Of a stretch of 64,000 bases of DNA, positions 5,180-56,067 are shown in pieces (positions within the stretch are counted from its first letter, which is position 1; every line of letters starts with the position of its first letter). The notes beneath the pieces were generated by a model, which did not search any database, was not told the DNA's origin, and was given only the letters and a program-made list of their open reading frames with translations. The stretch is from a bacterium (lineage in GTDB: Bacteria > Patescibacteriota > CPR2 > UBA1875 > JAJYID01). The translations under genes were made by a program, and so were the position numbers. The DNA lies in the NCBI GenBank assembly GCA_021787535.1, contig JAJYLR010000001.1, forward strand, positions 147,648 through 211,647, given 5' to 3'.

Positions 5180-5204
5180 GATTCTGGACAAGCCAGAATG
5201 ACAG
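5180..5204 (+). repeat. GAATGACA-hairpin repeat (GATTCTGGACAAGCCAGAATGACA)
   Basis: 7-bp stem ATTCTGG/CCAGAAT; followed by tandem GGAAATTG array 5221-5257 and degenerate copy 5291-5316. Confidence 0.85.
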
Positions 5205-5332
5205 ATTGAAGATTGTCTCATTGAGGATTGATTGGAAATTGGAAATTGTGAATTGGAAATTAAAAGTAAAGGGATTCCTCGACTTGTCCTTAACAGGAAG
5301 TCGCTCGGAATGACAAAAAGGAGACTAAATTT

Positions 5333-5728
5333 ATGGCGGATATGTATTCAGAAAAAGTAATGGATCATTTTATGAACCCGAGGAATGTCGGAGAGATTAA
5401 AGATGCTTCCGGAGTAGGCGAGAAGGGCAATCCGACCTGCGGGGATATCATGAAAATGTACATCAAGGTTGGCAAGAAAAATGGTAAGGAAATCATTGAG
5501 GATATTAAGTTTCAAACTTTTGGCTGCGGAGCGGCGGTAGCAACCTCTTCCATGATTACAGAAATGGTTAAAGGCAAGACTCTGAAGGAAGCGGAAAAGA
5601 TCTCAAATGCGCAAGTGGCAGAAGCGCTCGGAGGGCTGCCTCCGATAAAGATGCACTGTTCAAACTTGGCAGCAAATGCGCTGCAAGATGCGATAGAGAA
5701 CTATCGTTCTAAAATTTCTAATGCCTAA
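5333..5728 (+). CDS. iscU: Fe-S cluster assembly scaffold IscU/NifU
   Basis: MNPRNVGE...GNPTCGDIMK...FGCGAAVATSS...HCS three conserved Cys plus LPPVK-like motif. Confidence 0.88.
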   Translation: MADMYSEKVMDHFMNPRNVGEIKDASGVGEKGNPTCGDIMKMYIKVGKKNGKEIIEDIKFQTFGCGAAVATSSMITEMVKGKTLKEAEKISNAQVAEALGGLPPIKMHCSNLAANALQDAIENYRSKISNA

Positions 5729-5740
5729 TTAAGAATTTCT

Positions 5741-5844
5741 ATTCAAATCCCAATTCAAAAATTTCTTAAATTAAAAATTGGACATTCATTAGGAATTAGG
5801 AATTCTTAATTTTTAATTGGATTCCCGACTTCTCGGGAATGACA
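5741..5844 (+). repeat. tandem AATT/GGAATT-type octamer array followed by hairpin repeat GGATTCCCGACTTCTCGGGAATGACA
   Basis: compensatory stem variant (CCCG/CGGG instead of CTGG/CCAG). Confidence 0.8.
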
Positions 5845-10648: not shown

Positions 10649-12613
10649 ATGAATTCAAATAAACTAAGGCAAAAATTTCTGAAATTTTTTGAGGAGAAGG
10701 GGCACAAGGTTATCTCTTCAGCTTCGCTCGTGCCTGAAAACGACCCCTCGGTGCTTTTTACAACCGCCGGCATGCATCCGCTCGTGCCATATCTCATGGG
10801 TGAGAAACATCCGCTTGGGAAGAGATTAGTTGACATTCAGAAGTGTATTCGCACCGGTGACATCGACGAGGTTGGCGATATTCAGCACATGACATTCTTT
10901 GAGATGCTTGGCTACTGGTCGCTTGGCGATTACTTTAAAAAAGAATCCATTCACTACACCTATGATTTTTATACAAAAGTTCTGGGCATTGACGGCGATA
11001 AAATCTCTGTGACGGTGTTTAAAGGAGATAATGACGCACCGTTTGACCAAGAGTCGTATGACACTTGGAAAGCAATTGGTATTCCTGAAGATAGAATATA
11101 TAAATATCCTAAAAAAGAAAACTGGTGGGGGCCGGTCACAGATACGGGACCGTGCGGACCTTGCACTGAAATGTTTATCGATACCGGACTAGAATCCTGT
11201 GGGCCGGACTGCGGACCTTCGTGCAACTGCGATAAATTCGTCGAAATAGGCAACAACGTTTTCATGGAATATTTCAAAAACCACGAAGGGAAGTTCGAGA
11301 AGCTGGAGCAGAAAAATGTCGATGTCGGACTTGGCTTTGAACGGCTGGTAATGATTGTGAATGAGCTCGATACCGTATTTGAGACGGATCTTTTCACCGG
11401 TATTATCGGGAAAATTAAAGAGCTGGCTTCTCCTTCTGTCATTCCCGCGCAGGCGGGAATCCAGACGGAATCTAAGGAAAATTCCATCCGTGTAATCGCC
11501 GACCATATGCGGGCGGCAACGATGGCGATAGCGGATGAGGTAGAGCCGTCTAATCTGGATAGGGGTTATGTGGTTCGCAGGTTGATCCGTCGCTCTATCC
11601 GTCACGGAAGACTTATCGGAATTGAGGGCAAATTTACGGCAGAAATAGCCAAAGAAGTAGTGAAGTCACTAGGCGATGTCTATCCTGAACTTAAAGATAA
11701 TGAAGAATTTATTTACTCGGAACTTGATAAGGAAGAGGAGAAGTTTAATGACCTAATCATTAAAATAAAACCTAAGGAGAATAAAAGAGTAGAAATAAGA
11801 AAAAGGCTAGAAAAAGAAATCATAGATGCTGATAAAAAATGGATACTCGATGATACAAAAGTTGCTGGTATCAAATTTGATGACTTGAACGAGGAATATC
11901 AGAAGAGCCCAAGAAAATTCGTTACAACTGTTTCTGGGGCGATGGCCTTTAGGATGGAAACCACACATGGTTGGCCCAGTGATTTGTATTTTGAAGATAT
12001 TGCCGAGAAATTGATTAGTGAAGAACCAAGTAAAAGTATTACTATCGAAAAAAAAATTAGTGAAGAAAAAAAGGCGTATGAAGAGTTTGTAAAAAAGCAC
12101 CAGGAATTATCCAGAAAAGGCGCCGAGAAAAAGTTTAAAGGCGGGCTTGGTGAGGTTTCTGAGAAAACCATTAAATATCACACGGCTACTCATTTATTGC
12201 ACGAGGCGCTCAGACAGGTGCTTGGCAATCACGTCTACCAGAAAGGGTCGAATATTACAGCAGAAAGAATGCGGTTTGACTTTACCCATCCGGACAAAAT
12301 GACCGATGAAGAAAAAAAGAAGGTCGAAGATATTGTAAACGAACAGATTCAGGCCAAGTTACCGGTTATTGAAACCATTACGACCGTGGAAGAGGCGAAA
12401 GGTGAGGGAGCGATCGGACTTTTTGAAGCCAAATACGGAGAAAAAGTGAAAGTTTACTCGATCGGCGGGCCACTCGATTCGCCTGATGCATTTTCCAAGG
12501 AAATCTGTGGCGGCCCGCATGTCAAAAACACCGGCGAACTCGGCCATTTCAGGATTAAAAAAGAGGAATCAAGTTCTAAGGGAGTAAGGCGCATTAAAGC
12601 CGTTTTGGAGTAA
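10649..12613 (+). CDS. alaS: alanyl-tRNA synthetase (short form lacking C-Ala domain)
   Basis: class II AlaRS catalytic core (FTTAGM, GDIDEVG) and editing domain HxxxH (HTATHLLHEALR), CGGPHV; 654 aa; contains in-frame palindromic repeat at 11438-11466. Confidence 0.9.
   Translation: MNSNKLRQKFLKFFEEKGHKVISSASLVPENDPSVLFTTAGMHPLVPYLMGEKHPLGKRLVDIQKCIRTGDIDEVGDIQHMTFFEMLGYWSLGDYFKKESIHYTYDFYTKVLGIDGDKISVTVFKGDNDAPFDQESYDTWKAIGIPEDRIYKYPKKENWWGPVTDTGPCGPCTEMFIDTGLESCGPDCGPSCNCDKFVEIGNNVFMEYFKNHEGKFEKLEQKNVDVGLGFERLVMIVNELDTVFETDLFTGIIGKIKELASPSVIPAQAGIQTESKENSIRVIADHMRAATMAIADEVEPSNLDRGYVVRRLIRRSIRHGRLIGIEGKFTAEIAKEVVKSLGDVYPELKDNEEFIYSELDKEEEKFNDLIIKIKPKENKRVEIRKRLEKEIIDADKKWILDDTKVAGIKFDDLNEEYQKSPRKFVTTVSGAMAFRMETTHGWPSDLYFEDIAEKLISEEPSKSITIEKKISEEKKAYEEFVKKHQELSRKGAEKKFKGGLGEVSEKTIKYHTATHLLHEALRQVLGNHVYQKGSNITAERMRFDFTHPDKMTDEEKKKVEDIVNEQIQAKLPVIETITTVEEAKGEGAIGLFEAKYGEKVKVYSIGGPLDSPDAFSKEICGGPHVKNTGELGHFRIKKEESSSKGVRRIKAVLE
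11438..11466 (-). repeat. hairpin repeat inserted in frame in alaS (reverse orientation; encodes VIPAQAGIQ)
   Basis: GTCATTCCCGCGCAGGCGGGAATCCAG = reverse complement of CTGGATTCCCGC...GCGGGAATGAC family consensus. Confidence 0.75.
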
Positions 12614-21496: not shown

Positions 21497-21706
21497 TGCC
21501 TCCTTTCACGAAGGGTTTTTTGAATGAGCACCTGCTAGATTCAAATGTGCAGGATGTTCATTATAACTGTTTTAAACCAATTTGTCAATCATTTAAGCAT
21601 AAAAACATTGACTGAACGGCATAAAGGTGATAAGATATGATATTCGGTATTACCGTGCCAACTTAAAAATTAAATATTATTAGAGCACCACTTCCTGAAA
21701 GGAGGA

Positions 21707-22828
21707 GTGATGAAGGGCTTTCTTAAAAAGCTAGTGAGCCGTAAGGCAAAACTAGTGTATGTTAACTCATTTGCTGTTTATCGTTTCGCCGTCTCAGGGA
21801 TAATAGTTGCGGCGTGGTATTCAGGTGAATGGAATTGGGCTGTAGGACTGCTGTTGTCCGGAGTGCTGAGCGATTATATAGATGGATTCTTGGCACGTCT
21901 CTGGAAAGTGACCACGAAGTTCGGTTTTTGGTTTGACATGTTAAGCGATCGTTTCCTTCTCATGTCACCATTTATAGCCGAAACACTTCGCGGGAGATTA
22001 CCTTGGTATATTTTACCAGGTCTTGTCGTTTTGATAATCGTGACAGACATTTTGGCGATAAGCTCAAAAAATGTCAGGGCTCCTCAGGCGATTTACTGGT
22101 TTTCTTTGTTTGCCACTGTCTATGTACTGCTGACAACGGAGACTTCCTTCATCTATACATTACCTTGGCTTGTTTTGTGGGGTTTGATGTCGATGATCCC
22201 TGCCTGCGAACCCGCAAAAAGGAAGGAAGGCGCTCAAGCAGTAGAGGAAATACTGGGAGTCATTCCGGAGAAGTATCGTAACCAAATTCCAAACATGATG
22301 AGTTGGTTTCGGATCATTATTGCTCTTCCATGTTATTTGCTGGTAATGGGTGATCACTGGATCACGGCAAATATAGTTGTAACACTGGCATGGATAAGCG
22401 ATATGTATGACGGTGAGGTAGCAAGATACTTAGGTATAGCAAATCCCAAAAACCCAATAGATGTTGTGGGTGATGGAGTATTTGTAGCACCCCTGGTTTT
22501 TGCTCTTGCCAGAAAGGGTTTAATATCGTGGGGGCTTGTTGCTCTGGTTGTCGTTTTGTGGCTTGCTGCGATGATTATTCCTGAATACACAAAGGGGATT
22601 ATCAAGCAGATATTCATCCGAATATTGCCACTGATGTACATCATCTCAGCAACATATATTAGTTACACCTTTCTTAATCAGGTGGTTCCAACCGTATACT
22701 CCTTAATTATCATTGTTATGGCCGGAGCTATTGCAACAATACTGAAAAGAGAGAGGTTATATCAACTCATATGGCAGGGCAAACGCGCTCAGTACATTGA
22801 CCTGCCCGGTAACAAAAGAACTAATTAA
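21707..22828 (+). CDS. membrane protein with tandem CDP-alcohol phosphatidyltransferase domains
   Basis: two copies of D-G-x2-A-R...G-x3-D-x3-D motif (DYIDGFLARLW...GFWFDMLSD and DMYDGEVARYL...), multiple TM helices. Confidence 0.5.
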   Translation: MMKGFLKKLVSRKAKLVYVNSFAVYRFAVSGIIVAAWYSGEWNWAVGLLLSGVLSDYIDGFLARLWKVTTKFGFWFDMLSDRFLLMSPFIAETLRGRLPWYILPGLVVLIIVTDILAISSKNVRAPQAIYWFSLFATVYVLLTTETSFIYTLPWLVLWGLMSMIPACEPAKRKEGAQAVEEILGVIPEKYRNQIPNMMSWFRIIIALPCYLLVMGDHWITANIVVTLAWISDMYDGEVARYLGIANPKNPIDVVGDGVFVAPLVFALARKGLISWGLVALVVVLWLAAMIIPEYTKGIIKQIFIRILPLMYIISATYISYTFLNQVVPTVYSLIIIVMAGAIATILKRERLYQLIWQGKRAQYIDLPGNKRTN

Positions 22829-23044: not shown

Positions 23045-25957
23045 ATGAGTAACAAATATGATCATAAAAAAATAGAATCCAAGTGGCGCGATATTTGGGA
23101 GAAAGCCGGTCTTAACCGGACTGATTTAAAGTCAGTCAAACCCAAACACTACAATCTCGTCATGTTTCCGTATCCGAGCGCTGAGTATATCCATCTCGGC
23201 CATATTTACTCTTACTCCGGAGCTGATGTTTATGGGCGATACCAGAGATTGAAAGGCAAAAATGTCTTTGAGCCGATCGGTTTTGATTCATTTGGCCTGC
23301 CGGCTGAAAACTTTGCTATAAAAAAAGGCATTCATCCGGAAAAGGTGATTGATCATGCAATCGATCAATCTACGAGACAGCTGAAAGAAGCCGGCTTTAT
23401 GTTCGACTGGTTCCGGGAAGTGATCACTTCAAAGCCGGATTACTACAAATGGACTCAGTTGCTTTTCTTAAAACTATATGATCAAGGGTTGGCATATCGG
23501 AAAGAAGCGCCGGTGAATTGGTGCCCGAGCTGCAAGACGGTTTTGGCAAATGAACAGGTGAAAGATGGTTTGTGCGACCGTTGTGACACTGAGGTTGTAC
23601 AAAAGGAAATGAAGCAATGGTTTTTCAAAGTAACCGATTACGCCGAGAGATTGATAAAAGACTTGGACAAAGTTGACTGGCCTGAATCGTCGAAAATTAA
23701 ACAAAGGAACTGGATCGGCAGAAGTGAGGGTGTGGAGATGGATATGCAGATTACAGACTCTAAAGAAAAGTTTTCGGTATTTACCACTCGCATTGATACG
23801 GTTTACGGCATGACATATGTGGTGCTGGCACCGGAACATCCATTAGTTAATAAAATCACGACTGACAAACAGAAGAAAGAAGTTGAAAAGTACAAGATTC
23901 AGGCGCAGAAACAGACAGAGATCGAGAGGCAGTCGCTCGAAAAGGATAAAACAGGGGTATTTACAGGATCGTATGCTATAAATCCGTTTACCGGTGAGAA
24001 GGTGCCCATTTGGATAGCTGATTATGTACTTTTTGGTTATGGAACCGGTGCTGTGATGGCGGTACCGGCTCACGATGAGCGCGACTTCGAATTTGCCAAA
24101 AAGTACAAGCTTCCTATTATCCAGTCTATTGCGCCTCATAGTGTGGATACAAAAAATCCTCCGAGAAAAGGTAAAACAGATACTAGAAGAAAAGTAGTAC
24201 ATGTGATTTTGGAAAATGATAAGGGCGAGGTACTTACTTTAAATCTCAAGGGTCAGGAATGGGGTGATAATAAGCCCAAAACACTCATCATCGGCGGTAT
24301 AGAAGATAGGGAATCTCCGGAAGAAGCCGCCATGCGGGAGATCGAGGAAGAAACCGGTTACACAGATGTCCAGATTTCAGAGGTTTACCCGATTGAATTT
24401 CATGCTGAGTTTTTTGCCGCCCATAAAGATGTTAATCGTTATGTAGAAACAGTGGGTGTTTTCTGTCAACTGAAGTCTGAGAAAAAAGTTCCTGTCAGTG
24501 AAAATGAAAAGAAGCTGCATGAAATTATCTGGGTTAAGAAAAAAAATCTTCTTTCTTCCGTAACCATCCCTGACGATATTTTTCTAGCGAAAGCTTATGT
24601 AGAAAAAATTGGCAGCTACACTGAATATGGTGTACTTATCAATTCTGGCAAGTTCACCGGCCTTATCTACGAAGAAGCTAAAAAGAAAATGGCTGATTGG
24701 CTGGAGAAGAAAGGCATTGGCTCTCGCAAAATTAATTACCGTCTTCATGATTGGTCTATTGGACGACAAAGATACTGGGGAGCGCCGATACCGATCATTC
24801 ATTGCGACAAATGCGGGGTAGTGCCGGTTCCGGAGAAAGATTTGCCGGTTAAACTGCCGGAAAATATCAAAGATTTCCGGCCGAAAGGGACGGGGAAAGG
24901 TCCTTTGGCTAGCGTATCTGAATTTGTAAACGTAAAATGTCCAAGATGCGGAGGTAAAGCAGAGCGAGAAACTGATACCATGGATACTTTTGTCGACTCC
25001 AGCTTTTATTTCCTTCGTTATCCGAGTACGGGGGATGATACTCAAATGATGGAGCCAAAGGTTACCAAAAAATGGCTGCCTGTTGATATGTATGTCGGTG
25101 GTGCTGAACATGTAACCATGCATTTGCTTTATGCCAGATTTATCACGAAGGCCTTACATGATGCCAAACTGATTACTTTTGATGAGCCATTTATGAAGCT
25201 TCGCCATCAGGGATATATTTTGGGTCCGGATGGTAAAAAGATGTCTAAGTCAAAGGGCAATGTTGTTAATCCGGACGGCGTTGTCAAAGAGCATGGAGCG
25301 GACGCTTTCAGAACCTACATACTCTTTATGGCTCGGTTTGAAGACGGCGGTCCGTGGAACCCCAAAGGTTTAGTCGGTGTCAGCCGATTTCTGGAAAAGA
25401 TTTGGAGAATTGGAATTGGGTTGGATTCCCGTCTGCACGGGAATGACAATAAGGGTAATTGGCCGGACGTGTCTAGCACAGAGGTGCAGGCAAAACTTGC
25501 CAGAACTATCAAAAAGGTTGGGGAAGATATTGAGAGCTTTAAATTTAATACAGCCGTAGCTTCGCTTATGACGCTTATGAATGGCATCTCAGTTGAGAAA
25601 AGACCAGATGAAGATTGGATTAGTAAAGGAGACTTTGAAAAACTTCTGATTATTCTTGCGCCGTTTGCGCCATTTATAACCGAAGAACTTTGGGAAAAGC
25701 TTGGTAACAAGGATAGTATTCATGTAGAGAAGTGGCCGGCTTATGATGAAAAACTGATCCAGGAAGAGGCGGTGACAATCGCTGTACAGGTTAACGGCAA
25801 AGTCCGCGATCAGCTGGTTGTGAATGTCGATAGTGCAAAAGACGAAGTTTTTGAACTGGCAAAGGCAAGTGAGAAGGTGCAGAAGTATTTGTTAGATAAA
25901 GAGGTTAAAAAGGTTATCTATATCGAAGGTAAGCTACTTAGTCTTGTCGTGAACTAG
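23045..25957 (+). CDS. leuS: leucyl-tRNA synthetase with internal Nudix-domain insertion
   Basis: HIGH (HLGH), TTRIDT, AVPAHDERD, KMSKS; ~165-aa insertion (aa ~363-528) containing perfect Nudix box GGIEDRESPEEAAMREIEEETGY; second small in-frame palindromic-repeat insertion at 25423-25448. Confidence 0.9.
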   Translation: MSNKYDHKKIESKWRDIWEKAGLNRTDLKSVKPKHYNLVMFPYPSAEYIHLGHIYSYSGADVYGRYQRLKGKNVFEPIGFDSFGLPAENFAIKKGIHPEKVIDHAIDQSTRQLKEAGFMFDWFREVITSKPDYYKWTQLLFLKLYDQGLAYRKEAPVNWCPSCKTVLANEQVKDGLCDRCDTEVVQKEMKQWFFKVTDYAERLIKDLDKVDWPESSKIKQRNWIGRSEGVEMDMQITDSKEKFSVFTTRIDTVYGMTYVVLAPEHPLVNKITTDKQKKEVEKYKIQAQKQTEIERQSLEKDKTGVFTGSYAINPFTGEKVPIWIADYVLFGYGTGAVMAVPAHDERDFEFAKKYKLPIIQSIAPHSVDTKNPPRKGKTDTRRKVVHVILENDKGEVLTLNLKGQEWGDNKPKTLIIGGIEDRESPEEAAMREIEEETGYTDVQISEVYPIEFHAEFFAAHKDVNRYVETVGVFCQLKSEKKVPVSENEKKLHEIIWVKKKNLLSSVTIPDDIFLAKAYVEKIGSYTEYGVLINSGKFTGLIYEEAKKKMADWLEKKGIGSRKINYRLHDWSIGRQRYWGAPIPIIHCDKCGVVPVPEKDLPVKLPENIKDFRPKGTGKGPLASVSEFVNVKCPRCGGKAERETDTMDTFVDSSFYFLRYPSTGDDTQMMEPKVTKKWLPVDMYVGGAEHVTMHLLYARFITKALHDAKLITFDEPFMKLRHQGYILGPDGKKMSKSKGNVVNPDGVVKEHGADAFRTYILFMARFEDGGPWNPKGLVGVSRFLEKIWRIGIGLDSRLHGNDNKGNWPDVSSTEVQAKLARTIKKVGEDIESFKFNTAVASLMTLMNGISVEKRPDEDWISKGDFEKLLIILAPFAPFITEELWEKLGNKDSIHVEKWPAYDEKLIQEEAVTIAVQVNGKVRDQLVVNVDSAKDEVFELAKASEKVQKYLLDKEVKKVIYIEGKLLSLVVN
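25411..25448 (+). repeat. octamer (GAATTGGAATTGGG) plus hairpin repeat GGATTCCCGTCTGCACGGGAATGACA inserted in frame in leuS (encodes ...LDSRLHGNDNK)
   Basis: same family as intergenic copies. Confidence 0.75.
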
Positions 25958-25992: not shown

Positions 25993-26066
25993 TGTCATTC
26001 TCGGGCTTGACCCGGGAATCTATGAGTTAAATTTAAAAAATAGATCCTGTTTTCACAGGAATGACA
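25993..26066 (-). repeat. reverse-orientation hairpin repeat (TGTCATTCTCGGGCTTGACCCGGGAATC) plus half-copy ending GGAATGACA that supplies yceD ATG
   Basis: family consensus. Confidence 0.7.
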
Positions 26067-26525
26067 GAAAAAGTAAATTTGAAAATGACCAAAAAACCTT
26101 CAGATAACATAGATAATTCGGTTTATATTAACGTTAAAGATTTTCTGATCAAAGGGCCAGTAGGCGATACGGAAACGATTCCAATTCATGAAACATTCGA
26201 AAAATCGCTCGATCCGGAAAATACGCTTAGGTCTTTCGAAGGCAGTATCAAACTGACTCTGCTTGAGGAAGAGATTTTAGCAGAGTTCAGCGTCGAATAT
26301 TTAGCAAAAACGATTTGTGTCAGATGTTTGAAAAGGTTTGATCGAGAAGGCAGTCTGGCATTTGAAAGAGTATACTTGCTTGGTAGAAGAACGGCTGCGG
26401 ACGGCGAACTGATTGTCGGCAAGGATTTCCAAATTGAAGTTGGTGGGCCGATACTCGAAGAAATTAACTTCGATATACCGATGAAACCATTATGTAAAAC
26501 AGATTGTCAAGGATTTAACAAATAA
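26061..26525 (+). CDS. yceD: YceD/DUF177-family protein
   Basis: position upstream of rpmF, C-terminal CxxC...C..C motif (ICVRCLKRF...LCKTDCQGF); start ATG lies inside repeat terminus GAATGACA (alt. start 26085). Confidence 0.6.
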   Translation: MTEKVNLKMTKKPSDNIDNSVYINVKDFLIKGPVGDTETIPIHETFEKSLDPENTLRSFEGSIKLTLLEEEILAEFSVEYLAKTICVRCLKRFDREGSLAFERVYLLGRRTAADGELIVGKDFQIEVGGPILEEINFDIPMKPLCKTDCQGFNK

Positions 26526-35528: not shown

Positions 35529-35700
35529 AGTCAATTAAAATTAATTCTACTTTTTCTAAAAAAGTAGATAATATTTTTAAAGAGATAGATTGCCCATCTA
35601 TGTGGGAATAGAAGAAAACTGATGACTTAATAGATTCTGGTCAAGCCAGAATGACCCGTCACTATTACACAGTGCGGGGCAAGCATGTTAAAATAAGGAT

Positions 35701-36440: not shown

Positions 36441-36564
36441 ATTGGAAATTGGTAATTGCTGATTGGAAATTCTAAAACCTCTTTACACCACCGGCAAGAA
36501 TATTTAATATTTAATGTATAGATTACCGTTTTTACGGGAATGATAGAGAAAACGGGAATGACAA
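36441..36564 (+). repeat. tandem GATTGGAAATTGG array plus degenerate hairpin repeats ending GGGAATGACA
   Basis: family consensus. Confidence 0.6.
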
Positions 36565-36585
36565 TAAAGAAGGGAGTATTTTTAA

Positions 36586-36768
36586 ATGACGAAAATTAAG
36601 ATTGACGAGAACCTCTGTAGCGGCTGCGGAACATGCGAAGCGGCTTGTCCGGAATGCTTTAAAGTAGGGGAAAACTTCAAAGCTCATGTTATAAAACAGG
36701 ATTGCCAGGGCTGTGATCTGGATGAGGTAGTCGCTGACTGTCCTATGGGAGCTATAAGCCGTGAATGA
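36586..36768 (+). CDS. small 4Fe-4S ferredoxin
   Basis: 60 aa, CSGCGTCEAACP...C...CP pattern; RBS AGGGAG. Confidence 0.7.
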   Translation: MTKIKIDENLCSGCGTCEAACPECFKVGENFKAHVIKQDCQGCDLDEVVADCPMGAISRE

Positions 36769-37603: not shown

Positions 37604-37750
37604 CCATTTTCATTATAATAATGGAATTCTCAATTTCTCATTTTTCAGTGACCAATGAAAATTCATTGGAAATTGAGAAATGAAAACTGAAAATTATTTT
37701 TTTGCCTTTATGCTGGCAAAAGATCCCTTTTTCAGTTATAATGCCAACCT

Positions 37751-39925
37751 ATGGACAAATTTGTTTTGAAAAGCGGTTATAAAATGACTGGAGATCAACC
37801 GGAGGCGGCGGCCAGTTTAATCCGCGGTCTTGAAAATGGTCTGGACAAGCAAATTCTGCTGGGTGTGACGGGGTCCGGCAAGACTTTCACGGCGGCCAAT
37901 GTGATCCAGAAAATCAACAAACCGACTCTGGTCATTTCACATAACAAAACTCTGGCGGCGCAGCTGTATAGCGAATTCAAAGAATTTTTCCCCGATAATG
38001 CCGTGCGCTACTTTGTTTCTTACTACGACTACTACCAGCCGGAAGCTTACATCCCTCGTACCGATACCTATATTGAAAAAGACGCATCTATTAACGAAGA
38101 AATAGACCGGCTCAGAAATGCGGCAACGGCAGCTCTACTCTCAAGAAAGGATACCCTTATTGTCGCCAGCGTTTCCTGTATCTACGGTCTTGGTTCGCCT
38201 GAAGATTATATTAACATGAAAATAGATTTTGAAGCCGGCAAGGCGAAAAATCAGGAGAAAGCTATGCGCCAGCTTCTGGCAGTGCAGTACGAGCGAAATG
38301 ATCAGTCATTTGAAAGGGGAAAGTTCCGTGTGCGCGGCGATGTTCTGGACATTTATCCGATCTATGAGGAGAAAGCGGTACGCGTGACTTTCGATAATGA
38401 TATTGTGGAGTCAATTCGAGATCTCAATCCCGTGACAGGCGAGCTGGGCAAGAGAGTGGATAATGTTTCGATATTCCCGGCCAAGCACTTCGTCACGCCC
38501 AGGGAGAAACTGCTCTCAGCTATTCCGGAGATTGAGCGCGACCTGGCCAGCAGATTAGCCGAACTGAAGAAGCAGGGCAAACTGCTTGAAGCGCAGCGGC
38601 TGGAGCAGAGAACCAAGTTCGACCTGGAAATGATCCGAGAGACCGGCTACTGCTCGGGGATCGAGAACTATTCTCGTTATCTGGCAGGCCGTGCACCGGG
38701 CGAACCGCCGGCAACGCTTCTCGACTTCTTTCCTGATGATTTTCTAATGCTGATCGACGAGTCCCACATGACCATTCCGCAGATCAGAGGCATGTACAAC
38801 GGCGACCGATCGCGCAAAGAAACGCTTATCGAGCACGGATTTCGCCTGCCCTCAGCCCTCGATAATCGTCCGCTGCACTTCAGTGAATTTAAAAAATTCA
38901 TGAGCCCGGCCATCTTTATCTCAGCCACGCCGGGGGACTACGAATTCAAAACGGCCAGCGGACACAAGATTAACTCGGCCGATGAATATTACGAGGCGGC
39001 AAGAAGCAATGATCAATTTCCAATTTCCAATTTCCAATCAATTTCCAATGATCAAAATTCAAACAAAAACAGTCATTCTGGGGACGACAGGACTCCAGAA
39101 TCGGTTTTGGACAAGGATTCTGGACAAGCCAGAATGACAGGAAAAGGGTTCTCCTGGATTTCTGAACAGGTTATCCGCCCGACGGGGCTTCTCGATCCCG
39201 AGGTGGAAGTGCGCCCGAACAAGAACCAGATTGACGACCTCATTCACGCAATCCAGCTTAGGGTCAAGAAGGAGCAAAGGGTTTTGGTGACGACTTTAAC
39301 GAAAAGAATGGCCGAGGACCTAAGCGAATACTTGAAAGAGCTAAACATCAAGGTGACCTATATTCATTCGGAAATTAATACCTTGGAACGTCCGGAAATC
39401 CTGCGTGATCTTAGAAAAGGCGTCTATGACGTAGTTGTCGGCGTCAATCTTTTGCGGGAAGGTCTGGATCTGCCGGAAGTATCGCTGGTAGCAATCTTGG
39501 ACGCCGACAAGGAAGGATTTCTGCGCGGAGAGAACGCCCTCATTCAGACCATCGGGCGAGCGGCGCGGCACTCAGAAGGCAAGGTAATAATGTATGGCGA
39601 TACCATGACTTTATCTATGGAGCGAGCGATCAGCGAGACTCAACGAAGGCGCAGGATTCAAGAGGAATATAATAAAAAGCATGGCATTACGCCAAAGACT
39701 ATTAAAAAAGCTATTCGCGAAGACATCGTCCGGTCGGAAAAAAGAAAGAAAGAACCCAAATTCGAGATTACTGATATGCCGGCCGATGAACTTGAGCGCA
39801 TAGTTCAAGACATGCGTAAGAAAATGGAAATCGCCTCAAAGAACTTAGAATTTGAGCAGGCAGCCAAACTCCGCGACCAGATACAAGACATTAGAGCGAA
39901 GATAGAGTCAAAGAAAATAAAATAG
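37751..39925 (+). CDS. uvrB: excinuclease ABC subunit B
   Basis: [10 protein letters not shown] Walker A, DESH, helicase motifs, C-terminal UVR domain ([10 protein letters not shown]); ~50-aa in-frame repeat-derived insertion at 39000-39140. Confidence 0.9.
39001..39139 (+). repeat. composite element inside uvrB: (CAATTTC)n tandem array, hairpin GTCATTCTGG..CCAGAAT, hairpin GATTCTGGACAAGCCAGAATGACA; all in frame
   Basis: encodes ...[13 protein letters not shown]...[10 protein letters not shown]. Confidence 0.8.
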
Positions 39926-48491: not shown

Positions 48492-50045
48492 ATGGATGTG
48501 AAAAGGGAAGTTAAAAAATTGCCGGCGAGTCCGGGGGTATACATTTACCGCAACTCGCGGGGCAGAATAATCTATATTGGCAAAGCGATTTCAATTCGTC
48601 ATCGGGTGAGCCAGTATTTTCAAGATGCGCGGGGATTGGATGATAAGACGCGGAGGCTGGTGCCCGAGATAGCCAAGATTGAATATATAAAGACAGGTTC
48701 TGAGGTAGAGGCATTAATCTTGGAAGCGGAGCTCATCAAGCGCTACAAGCCGAAGTTTAACATCCAGTGGAAGGACGATAAAAACTATGTCTATATCAAA
48801 ATCACGGCTGAGGATTACCCGCAGGTATCTTTGGTTAGACAGATCGTAGACGATAAAGCGCGCTACATCGGTCCCTTTGTCAGTGCCGGAGCGGTAAGAG
48901 GGCTTCTGAGATATGTCCGGAGGATATTTATGTTTAGGCATTGTGAGAACATGCCTCAGAAAGTTTGCCTGCAATACTCTATCGGCAACTGTACGGGTCC
49001 GTGCCAAAAATACATAACAAAGGCCGAATACAACAAAAACATTCGCAGGATGATCAAGCTTTTTCAGGGTAAGACCAAGGAGATTGAGAGGGAATTTAGT
49101 CGGGAGATGAAGCAGGCAGCTAAGAATGAGGATTTTGAGAAGGCGGCCATGTATAGGAATAGGTTGATGTGGTTGAAAAAGATTAAAACGATCGAGCTAG
49201 ATAAAGAAGATTTTGATTCCGGACAAGCCAGAATGACGAGGGATAAGGGATTAATCGGTTTGCGGGACGCACTGGACCTTGGCTCGGTTCCGAAGCGGAT
49301 AGAGTGTTATGACATCTCTAATATATTCGGAAAAGCGGCGGTGGGCTCAATGGTAGTTTTTATAGACGGGCTGCCGGATAAAGCGCACTACAGGAGGTTT
49401 GAGATTAAGACGGTAGATAAGATTTCGGATACTGATATGATCAAGGAAGTTCTCTCGAGAAGGTTCAGAAAATTCACCGATTCTGGACAAGCCAGAATGA
49501 CAAAGCAAAGGGATTCTTCGCGGAGTTTATCCGTCTTTGGCGGGCTTAGAATGACAGGGAAGGATAGCGTGGACAAATCTTTTACTCAAGTACCTGACCT
49601 CATTATCATCGACGGCGGGAAGGGCCAGCTGTCGGTGGCGGAGAAGGCGCTCAATGAGTATAGCCTGCATCTAAACTTGGTGTCGCTTGCCAAAAGGCGC
49701 GAGGAGATATTCAAGAAGGATTATGGTCAAGCCAGAATGACGAGGGTAGGCAAGCAAAACGGAAATTTTCAGAAAATTACACTGCCGGAAGGCTCTGAGA
49801 GCTTGTATTTGGTTCAGCGCATTCGTGATGAGGCACACAGATTTGCCATAACTTATCACAGAAGCAAGCGCGGCAAGGAGATGGAAGCGTCAAATCTGGA
49901 TGCCATATCTGGTATTGGCCCAAAAACCAAAAAAAAGCTTCTTAGAAATTTTGGTTCACTTGAAAACATAAGAAAAGCATCAAAAGAAGATTTAGCCGAG
50001 ATAGTCGGCGGGAAACTGGCTCAAAAGATCAAAGAAAAACTTTAG
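48492..50045 (+). CDS. uvrC: excinuclease ABC subunit C (compact, with 3-4 in-frame palindromic-repeat insertions)
   Basis: GIY-YIG (VYIYRNSRGRIIYIGKA), UVR domain, endonuclease domain, C-terminal (HhH)2 ISGIGPKTKKKLL; repeated SGQARMT peptides. Confidence 0.9.
   Translation: MDVKREVKKLPASPGVYIYRNSRGRIIYIGKAISIRHRVSQYFQDARGLDDKTRRLVPEIAKIEYIKTGSEVEALILEAELIKRYKPKFNIQWKDDKNYVYIKITAEDYPQVSLVRQIVDDKARYIGPFVSAGAVRGLLRYVRRIFMFRHCENMPQKVCLQYSIGNCTGPCQKYITKAEYNKNIRRMIKLFQGKTKEIEREFSREMKQAAKNEDFEKAAMYRNRLMWLKKIKTIELDKEDFDSGQARMTRDKGLIGLRDALDLGSVPKRIECYDISNIFGKAAVGSMVVFIDGLPDKAHYRRFEIKTVDKISDTDMIKEVLSRRFRKFTDSGQARMTKQRDSSRSLSVFGGLRMTGKDSVDKSFTQVPDLIIIDGGKGQLSVAEKALNEYSLHLNLVSLAKRREEIFKKDYGQARMTRVGKQNGNFQKITLPEGSESLYLVQRIRDEAHRFAITYHRSKRGKEMEASNLDAISGIGPKTKKKLLRNFGSLENIRKASKEDLAEIVGGKLAQKIKEKL
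49215..49750 (+). repeat. three to four hairpin-repeat copies inserted in frame in uvrC (49215-49237, 49479-49502, 49511-49556, 49728-49750)
   Basis: each read in same frame giving (D)SGQARMT. Confidence 0.8.
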
Positions 50046-55147: not shown

Positions 55148-56035
55148 TCAATACCTTTGCAACACCTGAGCTGGTGTTTTAAGGCCAATGCCCAGATGCC
55201 TCCTTTCATTGTTGTAGTAATCCAGATAGCTTTTAATCCTTGCTTCAATTCCTTTCTCCAGCCATAGCTTTTCACATTCTTCCTGAATGGTTCTATTGAA
55301 TCTTTCAATGTGAGCATTATCATTTGGTTTTCTGACTCTGGAATGTCTGAGTTTTGTTCCTTTGTAGCCAAGCATGTCAGAAAACCATTTGCCAAATTCA
55401 GGTCCGTTATCTGTTTGGACTGTTTTAAATCTAAATCCTGCTAGTTTCTGTGCTTTTAAGACAAACTTCAAGCTGTTGGTTTGAGAAAACCTCTCAGTAT
55501 ATTCCGCATAAGCAAATCTTGAGTAAAGATCGATTAATGTATAGACATAATATCTAGTTCCATCATCTCTAACAAAGTGAATGGTGTCTAACTGAACCAA
55601 GTCACCCGGTTGAAAGACAAAAGGCCTGGGAATATGCGGCCTGAAGCGTTTCCACTTTGATTTTTCTCTGATCAATCCCTGTCTTTTAAGGGTTCTTTTC
55701 ACTGAGGATAAACTAACTTTAATATCTCTTTCCTTTAAATCCTCGTAGATCACTTCAGCGCATCTGTTGTGTTTTAATCTTTCTTCTCTGATTGCCTCAA
55801 TAATATCCTGGGGCAGTTCTTTCGGATGATGGTGAGGTCTTGAGCTTCTGGTTTGAAGATGAGCGTTTAATGAAAGATATTCCTCCCTATATCTTTTTGC
55901 CCATCTTGAAACAGAAGAGTAGGAATATCCAAAGTGACGGGCTACCTGCCTGGTTGAATATCCTTGCTTTAACATTCTGACAGCTTGCAATCTAACCTTT
56001 GGCATATTGGGATTTTTTGTGTATGACATACTCAT
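55148..56035 (-). CDS. DDE transposase (rve/integrase core, IS481/IS3 superfamily) with N-terminal HTH
   Basis: HTH QVARHFGYSYSSVSRWAKRY; DDE residues in VQLDTIHF, VQTDNGPEF, HIERFNRTIQEE. Confidence 0.8.
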   Translation of the reverse strand: MSMSYTKNPNMPKVRLQAVRMLKQGYSTRQVARHFGYSYSSVSRWAKRYREEYLSLNAHLQTRSSRPHHHPKELPQDIIEAIREERLKHNRCAEVIYEDLKERDIKVSLSSVKRTLKRQGLIREKSKWKRFRPHIPRPFVFQPGDLVQLDTIHFVRDDGTRYYVYTLIDLYSRFAYAEYTERFSQTNSLKFVLKAQKLAGFRFKTVQTDNGPEFGKWFSDMLGYKGTKLRHSRVRKPNDNAHIERFNRTIQEECEKLWLEKGIEARIKSYLDYYNNERRHLGIGLKTPAQVLQRY

Positions 56036-56067
56036 AATTTTAATGCAAAGTGTTGCAAAGGTATTGA
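55148..56067 (-). mobile_element. IS481-like insertion sequence (~920 bp) with 18-bp terminal inverted repeats TCAATACCTTTGCAACAC
   Basis: IRs at 55148-55165 and 56050-56067 (reverse complement) bracketing single transposase ORF. Confidence 0.75.

Follow-up and report, generated by a model that had tools for sequence, protein, structure and literature searches.

An in-frame mosaic of REP-type repeats inside the uvrB gene of a Patescibacteria genome

How does a block of tandem repeats and hairpins come to lie within the reading frame of uvrB, and what does it do there? The question is raised by a stretch of 64,000 nucleotides (nt) of a genome from the Patescibacteria, or candidate phyla radiation (CPR) (assembly GCA_021787535.1, contig JAJYLR010000001.1, positions 147,648 to 211,647 of the forward strand), which is called the window throughout and to which all coordinates refer. 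The feature is confirmed as real and as a known phenomenon in a new phylum, namely that of intragenic CGTC-type repetitive extragenic palindromes (REPs) and of coding palindromes like the Rickettsia palindromic elements (RPEs); only the turnover of inserts at one fixed site in uvrB is possibly new. I regard it as probable that selfish REP-type DNA was inserted into a permissive linker of the protein, was kept as an in-frame, stop-free and hydrophilic segment, and is translated as a loop. The gene and the parts of the insert are as follows.

37751-39925, plus strand: uvrB coding sequence, host gene of the insert, a stop-free open reading frame (ORF) of 724 codons, hence 724 amino acids (aa)
39005-39139, plus strand: in-frame insert in uvrB, 135 bases or 45 codons without stops, residues 419-463
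39005-39070, minus strand: AT-rich module with a heptamer array, CAATTTC on the plus strand and GAAATTG/ATTGGAA on the minus strand
39072-39104, minus strand: reverse REP hairpin, GTC-ATTCTGG GG..loop..CT CCAGAAT-CGG, encoding 11 aa
39116-39139, plus strand: forward REP hairpin, GATTCTGG-ACAAG-CCAGAAT-GACA, translated as DSGQARMT

The product of 37751-39925 is UvrB, as UvrB chains in the PDB match it with an E-value of about 1e-259, and the source protein (P0001) carries the Pfam domains ResIII, UvrB_inter, Helicase_C, UvrB and UVR. The solved chains cover residues 1-404 and 470-718 and skip residues 405-469. An original prediction had described a block of about 140 bp at 39001-39139, with a CAATTTC array and two hairpins, translated without stops. 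All of these parts are present according to the ORF, Tandem Repeats Finder (TRF) and the hairpin scan, and the translation matches exactly; the bounds shrink to 39005-39139 when set by alignment with the empty-site orthologues L004 and L209. The array, which had been called an octamer array, is one of heptamers (TRF: CAATTTC, period 7, 5.6 copies, 39014-39049), and ATTGGAAATTGGAAATT matches within it on the minus strand at 39008-39038. The insert is a composite, in which the AT-rich heptamer array is followed by an inverted REP dimer (39072-39139; 69 bp, 23 codons) with the outward-facing ends GTCATTCTGG...CCAGAATGACA. The forward hairpin has its stem at 39117-39123/39129-39135, its loop at 39124-39128 and the tag GACA (TGTC when read on the opposite strand), while the stem of the reverse hairpin can be counted as seven perfect pairs or as nine with one mismatch.

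Within the protein, the first RecA-like half ends in a helix and the second begins with the IRPTGLLDP strand; the insert is found between these two, in a structural gap between chain residues ~401-406 and 407 of 9gy7_E / 2fdc_A. I take this to be the linker from domain 1a to domain 3, going by what is known of the Bacillus caldotenax UvrB structure, and it is far in sequence from the UvrB beta-hairpin and from domain 2. In an AlphaFold2 (AF2) model built from a 23-sequence alignment, residues 421-465 have a predicted local distance difference test (pLDDT) score of about 25-30 and no secondary structure; the mean pLDDT of this model is low overall (61.6), and I use it solely for the missing predicted structure of the insert. 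It hints at a disordered surface loop.

Relatives of the protein came from a search of 5.8 billion proteins, in which the close UvrBs are 678-744 aa long; a search of genome contigs with UvrB gave, among the matches listed, almost exclusively distant UvrBs, with L036 as the only close relative. Across the close relatives (77-98% identity) the site is either empty or filled with at least four unrelated insert types, at exactly one codon. The insert point in all alleles follows directly on the conserved DEYYExxR, and the DNA of nine alleles places it at the same arginine codon. The UvrB alignment gives the following alleles.

Empty site: P0008, P0010, P0011, P0013
Type A, the insert of the window: P0003
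Type B, a different double-hairpin insert: P0002, P0004
Type C, a long insert with VIPAEAGIQ and tandem repeats: P0005
Type D, a decayed insert: P0006, P0009, P0012
Short remnant insert: P0007

The segment is therefore not a conserved part of UvrB: it occurs neither in distant UvrBs nor in the solved structures, nor in the close relatives with an empty site. The prediction of a UvrB about 50 aa longer than typical holds roughly against the empty-site relatives of the clade (678-682 aa), which the protein exceeds by about 45 aa, and falls short against the ordinary 653-aa UvrB, which it exceeds by about 70. The remaining difference is due to an older, clade-specific extension around the insert. 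This extension of about 25-33 aa is seen at the domain 1a/3 junction of more distant Patescibacteria UvrBs (686-689 aa); it is not in the ordinary UvrB, which is without about 70 of the residues found here, and the REP inserts land inside it. Its motif K.x.S.DEYYE..R.G..F.WI falls at window residues ~400-418 and 464-470 (nt ~38950-39004 and 39140-39160). The extension might itself be an ancient domesticated insert.

An assembly in which repeats were collapsed or mis-joined could place an insert in a gene to which it does not belong, and the 635,771-bp contig is of the metagenome type, repeats being classic sites of such errors. However, the insert is exactly in frame with uvrB intact on both sides, type A is found with ten scattered differences in the independent assemblies GCA_027334665.1 and GCA_021796415.1, and other insert types occupy the same codon in contigs from ENA, JGI and Logan. 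These independent assemblies exclude an assembly error for practical purposes, and I give it next to no probability.

The alleles do not follow the descent of the gene. In a neighbour-joining gene tree, from which the insert columns were left out, the window groups with P0002, which has type B (90% identity), and the type A protein P0003 with P0013, whose site is empty (90.5%). The insert types are distributed in conflict with this tree, type A being present in two non-sister lineages. Moreover, P0004 (type B) and P0005 (type C) are 96% identical, and P0007 (short insert) and P0008 (empty) 98%; as near-identical UvrBs have unlike content at this site, the content turns over faster than the protein changes. 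The identities between DNA sequences of the same insert type, given below as fractions for amino acids, nucleotides and third codon positions, show how the inserts compare with their host genes.

Window and L001 (type A), rest of gene: amino acids 0.81, nucleotides 0.72, third positions 0.44
Window and L001 (type A), insert: amino acids 0.89, nucleotides 0.94, third positions 0.89
L003 and L207 (type B), rest of gene: amino acids 0.86, nucleotides 0.75, third positions 0.48
L003 and L207 (type B), insert: amino acids 0.75, nucleotides 0.87, third positions 0.86
L006 and L208 (type D), rest of gene: amino acids 0.89, nucleotides 0.76, third positions 0.44
L006 and L208 (type D), insert: amino acids 0.63, nucleotides 0.76, third positions 0.71

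Between the window and L001, every other stretch of 46 codons in uvrB reaches at most 0.61 at third positions. The divergence of the inserts is thus unlike that of the flanking coding sequence, and the inserts share an ancestor much more recent than that of their host genes, unless every position is constrained. The ten differences between the two type A inserts comprise three synonymous and seven non-synonymous ones, none of them in the stems; the substitutions have no codon-position structure. Transfer of a larger patch of uvrB by homologous recombination is an unlikely source of the likeness, since the high identity stops within ~10-25 nt of the insert. A comparison of filled with empty uvrB sites reveals no visible target-site duplication and no conserved target motif.

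These patterns bear on how the inserts arrive. Recurrent insertion or cassette replacement at a single permissive site would be the most economical reading of the insertion. A stronger version is that cassettes are actively exchanged at a fixed landing site: CGTC-type REP dimers and their mosaics would be mobile now in Patescibacteria and would be directed to fixed codons of essential genes (residue 418/419 of uvrB and one site in SMC) in a site-specific or templated way. A recombinase that works on dRS3-like hairpins, as proposed for the arrays of Neisseria intergenic mosaic elements (NIMEs), would be one example, and the site would be a hot spot and not merely permissive. The four or more insert types alternating with empty sites at one codon among close relatives agree with this, as do the sisters of the two type A lineages, which have type B or nothing, the insert DNA with its identity of 87-94% for pairs A and B (76% for D) next to host third positions near saturation, and the abrupt end of the high identity beyond the insert. 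Exchange driven by a recombinase at dRS3 has been published as the NIME hypothesis (PMC1797815). SMC seems to add to this: the SMC of L001 (2215-2385) has a 54-aa in-frame mosaic that combines a reverse hairpin with CAATTTC repeats, a GC hairpin and WIPAFAGMT, and a 6-aa remnant stands at this same position in L005's SMC, which points to a second recurrent insertion site. On the other hand, a candidate recombinase or transposase did not turn up, the window holding only an unrelated IS481-like insertion sequence (IS) and the search for a Y1 enzyme being weak; the empty uvrB sites lack any visible trace of a target; a similar picture could result from a single early insertion, with nesting of further insertions, deletions and decay in a permissive loop afterwards; and the comparison covers nine DNA sequences only. 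Exchange directed to the site is partly compatible with passive insertion of selfish DNA, and I hold it to be possible though rather doubtful. If REP dimers are indeed mobile now, hosts of ~600 genes with filled, empty and swapped sites could expose the enzyme that moves CGTC/dRS3-type repeats.

The searches for such an enzyme were as follows. None of the 30 window ORFs scanned against Pfam encodes a Y1/HUH protein of the RAYT (REP-associated tyrosine transposase) or IS200 type, and a tblastn search of 0.95 Mb of related, fragmentary contigs gave no Y1 transposase, which is a weak test as the queries were approximate. The only IS of the window is the IS481-like element at 55148-56067, with a DDE integrase (rve, helix-turn-helix) encoded by the ORF at 55148-56035 on the minus strand. 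Perfect inverted repeats of 18 bp, TCAATACCTTTGCAACAC, enclose the element, which lies between tRNA-Leu (54755) and tRNA-Val (56375). These inverted repeats are unrelated to the hairpins and no target-site duplication is visible, and an origin of the insert as an IS-derived miniature inverted-repeat transposable element was rejected. An intein, an intron and translational bypass were rejected on account of size, of missing motifs and of the sense-orientation filter described below; the insert is a low-complexity segment of 45 aa, and Rfam at its gathering threshold finds four tRNAs only in the window and no match to the hairpins.

Where, then, does the insert come from? It belongs to a repeat family of the same genome. 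The sequence of its forward hairpin, GATTCTGGACAAGCCAGAATGACA (39116-39139), has identical copies at 5180 and 49479 and four more with up to three mismatches; in total, this 24-mer has seven matches with at most three mismatches in the window, compared with none in shuffled sequences. GAATGACA occurs 17 times in the 64 kb (2.4 expected), the heptamer dimer 14 times (0.9 expected from shuffled controls), and hairpins of the form AT-stem/loop/stem-AT-GAC 19 times (2.6 in shuffles). The stems vary (ATTCTGG/CCAGAAT, ATTCCCGC/GCGGGAAT, ATTCCGGA/TCCGGAAT, ATCCTGAA/TTCAGGAT) with arms that are complementary in each, although the hairpin scan demanded paired arms and an AT stem start, so that neither is an independent test. 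As the stems vary yet stay complementary, the common feature is a hairpin flanked by G-AT...AT-GACA and no single fixed sequence. The related composites and the other in-frame copies in the window are listed here.

5180-5315, plus strand: intergenic composite upstream of a NifU-like gene, with a forward hairpin at 5180-5203 and an ATTGGAA array at 5231-5261
5741-5844, plus strand: intergenic composite of AT-rich heptamer-like repeats and a dRS3-type hairpin, ATTCCCGActtcTCGGGAAT-GACA (5821-5843)
36441-36563, plus strand: intergenic composite upstream of a ferredoxin gene, with an ATTGGAA array at 36441-36471 and hairpins ending in GGGAATGACA (36522-36563)
11436-11462, minus strand: dRS3-type REP in frame in alaS, ATTCCCGCctgcGCGGGAAT, with tag TGTC and tail CCA, translated as VIPAQAGIQ
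25400-25448, plus strand: heptamer-like stretch and dRS3-type REP in frame in leuS, RIGIGLDSRLHGND, the translation including GLDSRLHGND
49215-49238, plus strand: REP hairpin in frame in uvrC, first site, translated as DSGQARMT, not in the UvrC of L006
49479-49556, plus strand: REP hairpin and degenerate second hairpin in frame in uvrC, second site, 26 aa including GGLRMT
49719-49742, plus strand: REP hairpin in frame in uvrC, third site, translated as DYGQARMT, aligning to a gap in solved UvrC

The same architecture had been predicted between genes at 5180-5320, 5741-5844 and 36441-36564, and both module types are indeed found there; the heptamer array of uvrB recurs in opposite orientation at 5231-5261 and 36441-36471, and the composite upstream of the NifU-like gene ends in a long imperfect hairpin (5272-5315) with the terminus GGAATGACA. 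The in-frame copies coincide with residues that orthologues in related contigs or solved structures do not have: the alaS segment makes up ~9-10 aa that are additional to solved AlaRS structures, the leuS segment is not in the LeuRS of L003 and L005, and residues 328-366 of the query at the second uvrC site have no counterpart in solved UvrC. The UvrC of L006 carries an in-frame insert of its own, of 33 aa (~21650-21750).

The exact hairpin, as the 23-mer GATTCTGGNCAAGCCAGAATGAC, is present in at least 120 metagenome contigs, with 134 copies among the matches listed, to which the following counts also refer. Between 16 and 18 of the 134 copies are deep inside long ORFs, with 50 codons (150 nt) or more between them and each ORF end. 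The 23-mer is in frame in at least ten unrelated protein families, which include class I and class II lysyl-tRNA synthetase (LysRS), ATP-dependent DNA ligase, GatB, YchF and RNase H, and further a P-type ATPase, a family 2 glycosyltransferase (GT2), a Mur-type ligase and a prepilin peptidase. The module thus appears to be what the prediction took it for, normally non-coding DNA: it is abundant between genes, and the identical hairpin is translated in frame in many unrelated proteins. In most intragenic copies, a reverse hairpin translated as RHSG...SRI or VILG...TPES precedes the forward one, and a reverse partner lies 31-113 nt upstream, with tags outward, in 70 of 123 copies. As this partner is common, the recurrent unit is the inverted dimer with the outward ends GTCATTC...GAATGAC, and the heptamer array of uvrB is a second, fused module.

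The orientation of these copies indicates what is kept inside genes. The intragenic ones are in sense orientation in 17 of 18 cases (one antisense), while the intergenic ones show no bias, 20 being co-oriented with both neighbouring genes and 16 antisense to both. Stop codons cannot explain the sense bias, since all three antisense frames of the hairpin are open and one sense frame has a TGA. The sense frames encode hydrophilic peptides and the antisense frames hydrophobic or cysteine-containing ones. A filter acting on the peptide would be the simplest explanation of the bias, and would imply that the copies are translated.

Two further observations were made among these contigs. Five contigs classed as viral (L210-L215, IMG/VR) also have the exact hairpin, some of them GC-richer with single copies in coding-like sequence and others with the full inverted dimer; these may represent phages whose hosts bear REPs, or host DNA that was misclassified. 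Downstream of the REP dimer, L104, L106, L107, L112 and L155 have the module AGAAATAnGGAACTGCGGCAGAGACCGCAG, a CTGCGG...CCGCAG hairpin, and its presence after the dimer in several unrelated contigs indicates that further types of module contribute to larger mosaics.

What kind of REP is this? The closest known system is the CGTC-tagged superfamily of Di Nocera, De Gregorio & Rocco (2013, BMC Genomics 14:522, PMC3733652), defined by an unpaired, terminal tag CGTC, often TGTC or CCTC, a stem of 8-9 bp that nearly always starts with two A-T pairs, a loop of 4-5 nt and a 3-bp tail close to CCA at the untagged end; its members are mostly inverted dimers, often heterodimers, with no associated transposase known (PMC3733652). 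The tag is found here, as 15 of the 19 window hairpins end in GACA (TGTC) and two in GACG (CGTC); in uvrB, the forward hairpin has TGTC and the reverse one AGTC (GGTC in L001), and many metagenome dimers have CGTC. All window copies start with AT, and the ATTCCCG-type stems have 8 bp, while in uvrB the forward stem has 7 bp (ATTCTGG) and the reverse one 9 bp with one mismatch. Loops in the window are mostly of 4 nt (five copies) and 5 nt (seven copies); in uvrB, the forward loop has 5 nt (ACAAG) and the reverse one 9-13 nt, depending on how inner pairs are counted. As to the tail, the four copies of the ATTCCCG type (5837, 11444, 25441 and 35510) have CCA, most of those of the ATTC(C/T)GG type have CTA, and the two uvrB hairpins have CCT and CGG. 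Inverted dimers are seen in the uvrB insert as well as in the 70 metagenome copies. The ATTCCCG-type copies of the window fit the published subfamily CGTC-1 on all points, the CCA tail included; the uvrB hairpins, which agree with most defining features and only partly in stem, loop and tail, I file as a putative variant family of the superfamily. In contrast to the published REPs, the uvrB dimer is joined to a heptamer array rich in AT, a single codon takes several insert types in alternation, and the host belongs to the Patescibacteria/CPR, which are not among the five phyla listed in PMC3733652.

The intragenic habit is likewise shared. Intragenic REPs encode 20-80 aa, and a striking share of them lies in uvrA/B/C, recBCD, polymerases and tRNA synthetases, with Rickettsia conorii uvrB among the carriers (PMC3733652); here they are in uvrB, uvrC, alaS and leuS of the window, and in DNA ligase, LysRS and GatB in metagenomes. 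This choice of genes raises the alternative that the protein segment has been exapted, the loop altering UvrB, and also UvrC and the tRNA synthetases, for example by tuning repair to a mutator or altered-specificity state, as has been speculated for REP-tagged repair genes. The in-frame copies of the window (three sites in uvrC) do fall in the classes that PMC3733652 reports as enriched, and the uvrB insert sits at the hinge between two ATPase halves. However, long genes with modular linkers are also larger and more permissive targets, and the same peptide occurs in the ten or more unrelated families, membrane proteins included. The insert is different or absent in close relatives, its amino acid conservation (0.63-0.89) falls short of that of the remaining gene for pairs B and D and exceeds it by little for pair A, although the insert DNA is more alike; non-synonymous and synonymous changes stand in a roughly neutral ratio. 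I therefore consider exaptation quite improbable. The original prediction had left it open whether a non-coding mobile module was exapted or tolerated as coding sequence: tolerated describes it well, exapted less so, because the insert varies or is absent in close relatives and its substitutions have no codon-position pattern.

Alternatively, the hairpins might act as RNA: in the uvrB mRNA and in the 5' leaders of other genes they could signal processing, stability or ribosome pausing, for instance a pause where one helicase half of UvrB gives way to the other, with the peptide as a by-product. Many intergenic copies end 15-30 nt upstream of a ribosome binding site and start codon (5308->5333, 36556->36586), the stem variants all keep paired arms (a point weakened by the scan having required pairing), and no substitution falls within a stem between the window and L001. 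It is argued in the literature that many REPs are transcribed and work as RNA elements (PMC3733652), and a small-RNA probe from Francisella has the same palindrome (PMC3733652, PMC3091763). Against such a role, the lack of an orientation bias of intergenic copies towards flanking genes (20 versus 16) speaks against a strand-specific function, the 150-nt insert folds no better than shuffled sequence (z = -1.4), and close relatives do without the insert or have decayed ones (type D). The hairpins have no Rfam match. A scan of 38800-39400 for promoters and terminators gave nothing above background, and an internal promoter or terminator is not supported. An RNA function is thus unlikely, if a little less so than exaptation.

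The sequence of events that I propose would then be as follows. The block would be a mosaic of the genome's own REP-type repeats, a heptamer array and an inverted dimer of CGTC/TGTC-tagged palindromes, that entered uvrB at the level of DNA, at the surface linker from domain 1a to domain 3 that connects both RecA-like halves. It would survive because its length is a multiple of three, its frame free of stops and its encoded peptide hydrophilic. It would be transcribed and translated with uvrB, most likely as a disordered loop that UvrB tolerates, and would behave as near-neutral selfish DNA and not as a new functional domain; it would be neutral for repair.

Several points weigh against this account. 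The inserts are far less diverged than the synonymous sites of their hosts, which purely neutral vertical inheritance cannot explain, so that recent or repeated acquisition, or constraint at the level of nucleotides, is required. Near-identical composites at one codon in the window and in P0003, which are not sisters, are hard to obtain by random insertion. The 7-bp stem of the forward uvrB hairpin and the 9-13-nt loop of the reverse one are slightly outside the published ranges for CGTC REPs. The poor AF2 model (mean 61.6; 23 sequences) makes the disordered loop weakly supported.

How does the insert relate to the better-known repeat systems? The RPEs (Ogata et al. 2000, Science 290:347; 2002, Genome Res 12:808; reviewed in PMC10969869) are likewise short palindromes in frame in many unrelated housekeeping genes, absent from orthologues and translated where the fold tolerates it, as is seen here. 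The link to them is made through the statement that CGTC-1 comprises Neisseria dRS3 and RPE-6 and that CGTC-4 is RPE-4 (PMC3733652). RPE-1 differs, being a single element of ~100-150 bp with one conserved peptide whereas the uvrB insert is a mosaic of smaller units, and the RPE host is an obligate intracellular alphaproteobacterium, while the present one is of a free-living or episymbiotic CPR lineage. Four window copies (5821, 11438, 25425 and 35504) fit the dRS3 unit ATTCCC-N8-GGGAAT (PMC1797815) exactly, unlike the uvrB hairpins, ATTCTGG-N5-CCAGAAT (19 bp) and ATTCTGGGG..CTCCAGAAT, which do not have the 20-bp unit ATTCCCNNNNNNNNGGGAAT.

With the NIMEs, the insert shares the alternation of hairpins with AT-richer modules, and an array content that differs between related genomes, suggesting recombinational turnover. 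NIME arrays, however, are dRS3 units flanking RS elements of 50-150 bp, are intergenic and are stated not to occur outside Neisseria (PMC1797815); the uvrB feature is intragenic, the arrays are short (1-3 hairpins), and no link to a filamentous phage integrase was seen here. REPINs, the repeats of the REPIN/RAYT systems (Bertels & Rainey 2011; PMC3116915), resemble the insert as inverted doublets with a short spacer and many copies. They are described as extragenic, and the tag here is TGTC/CGTC and not GTAG, with no RAYT (Y1 HUH) found in the window or in the 0.95 Mb of related contigs.

The insert extends the protein-coding palindromes (RPE and intragenic REP) to the candidate phyla radiation, and a literature search found no CPR-specific report of in-frame palindromes. 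In the minimal genomes of CPR bacteria, junk inside essential genes is least expected. Such repeats explain part of the unusual lengths and low-complexity inserts of CPR housekeeping proteins, and these inserts can lead annotation, alignment and structure prediction astray. At the uvrB site, close relatives provide a natural series of alleles that are empty, filled or replaced, with inserts far younger than the gene; the series can be used for the question of how CGTC/dRS3-type repeats, for which no transposase is known, move. At least four insert types alternating at one codon, which disagree with the gene tree and have diverged far less than the synonymous sites of the gene, possibly go beyond what has been published.

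Finally, some smaller features of the surroundings may be mentioned. The REP hairpins at 5308-5333, 36556-36586 and 26059-26087 end 15-30 nt upstream of a ribosome binding site and start codon, so that the leader of the next gene has the REP as its 5' end. The motif CACTATTAnnAnAGTGCGGGGCA, a small hairpin (GCAC...GTGC), follows directly on a forward hairpin ending in GAATGACC and is conserved at two loci, upstream of trmD in the window (35656-35690) and upstream of uvrA in L001 (13233-13260). In front of uvrB itself, an ATTGGAA-type array is found at 37665-37681, ~70 nt upstream of the TATAAT/start region. A perfect TATAAT box (in the 37737-37753 region) ends 8 nt before the ATG with no Shine-Dalgarno sequence between them, and the uvrB mRNA may therefore be leaderless.

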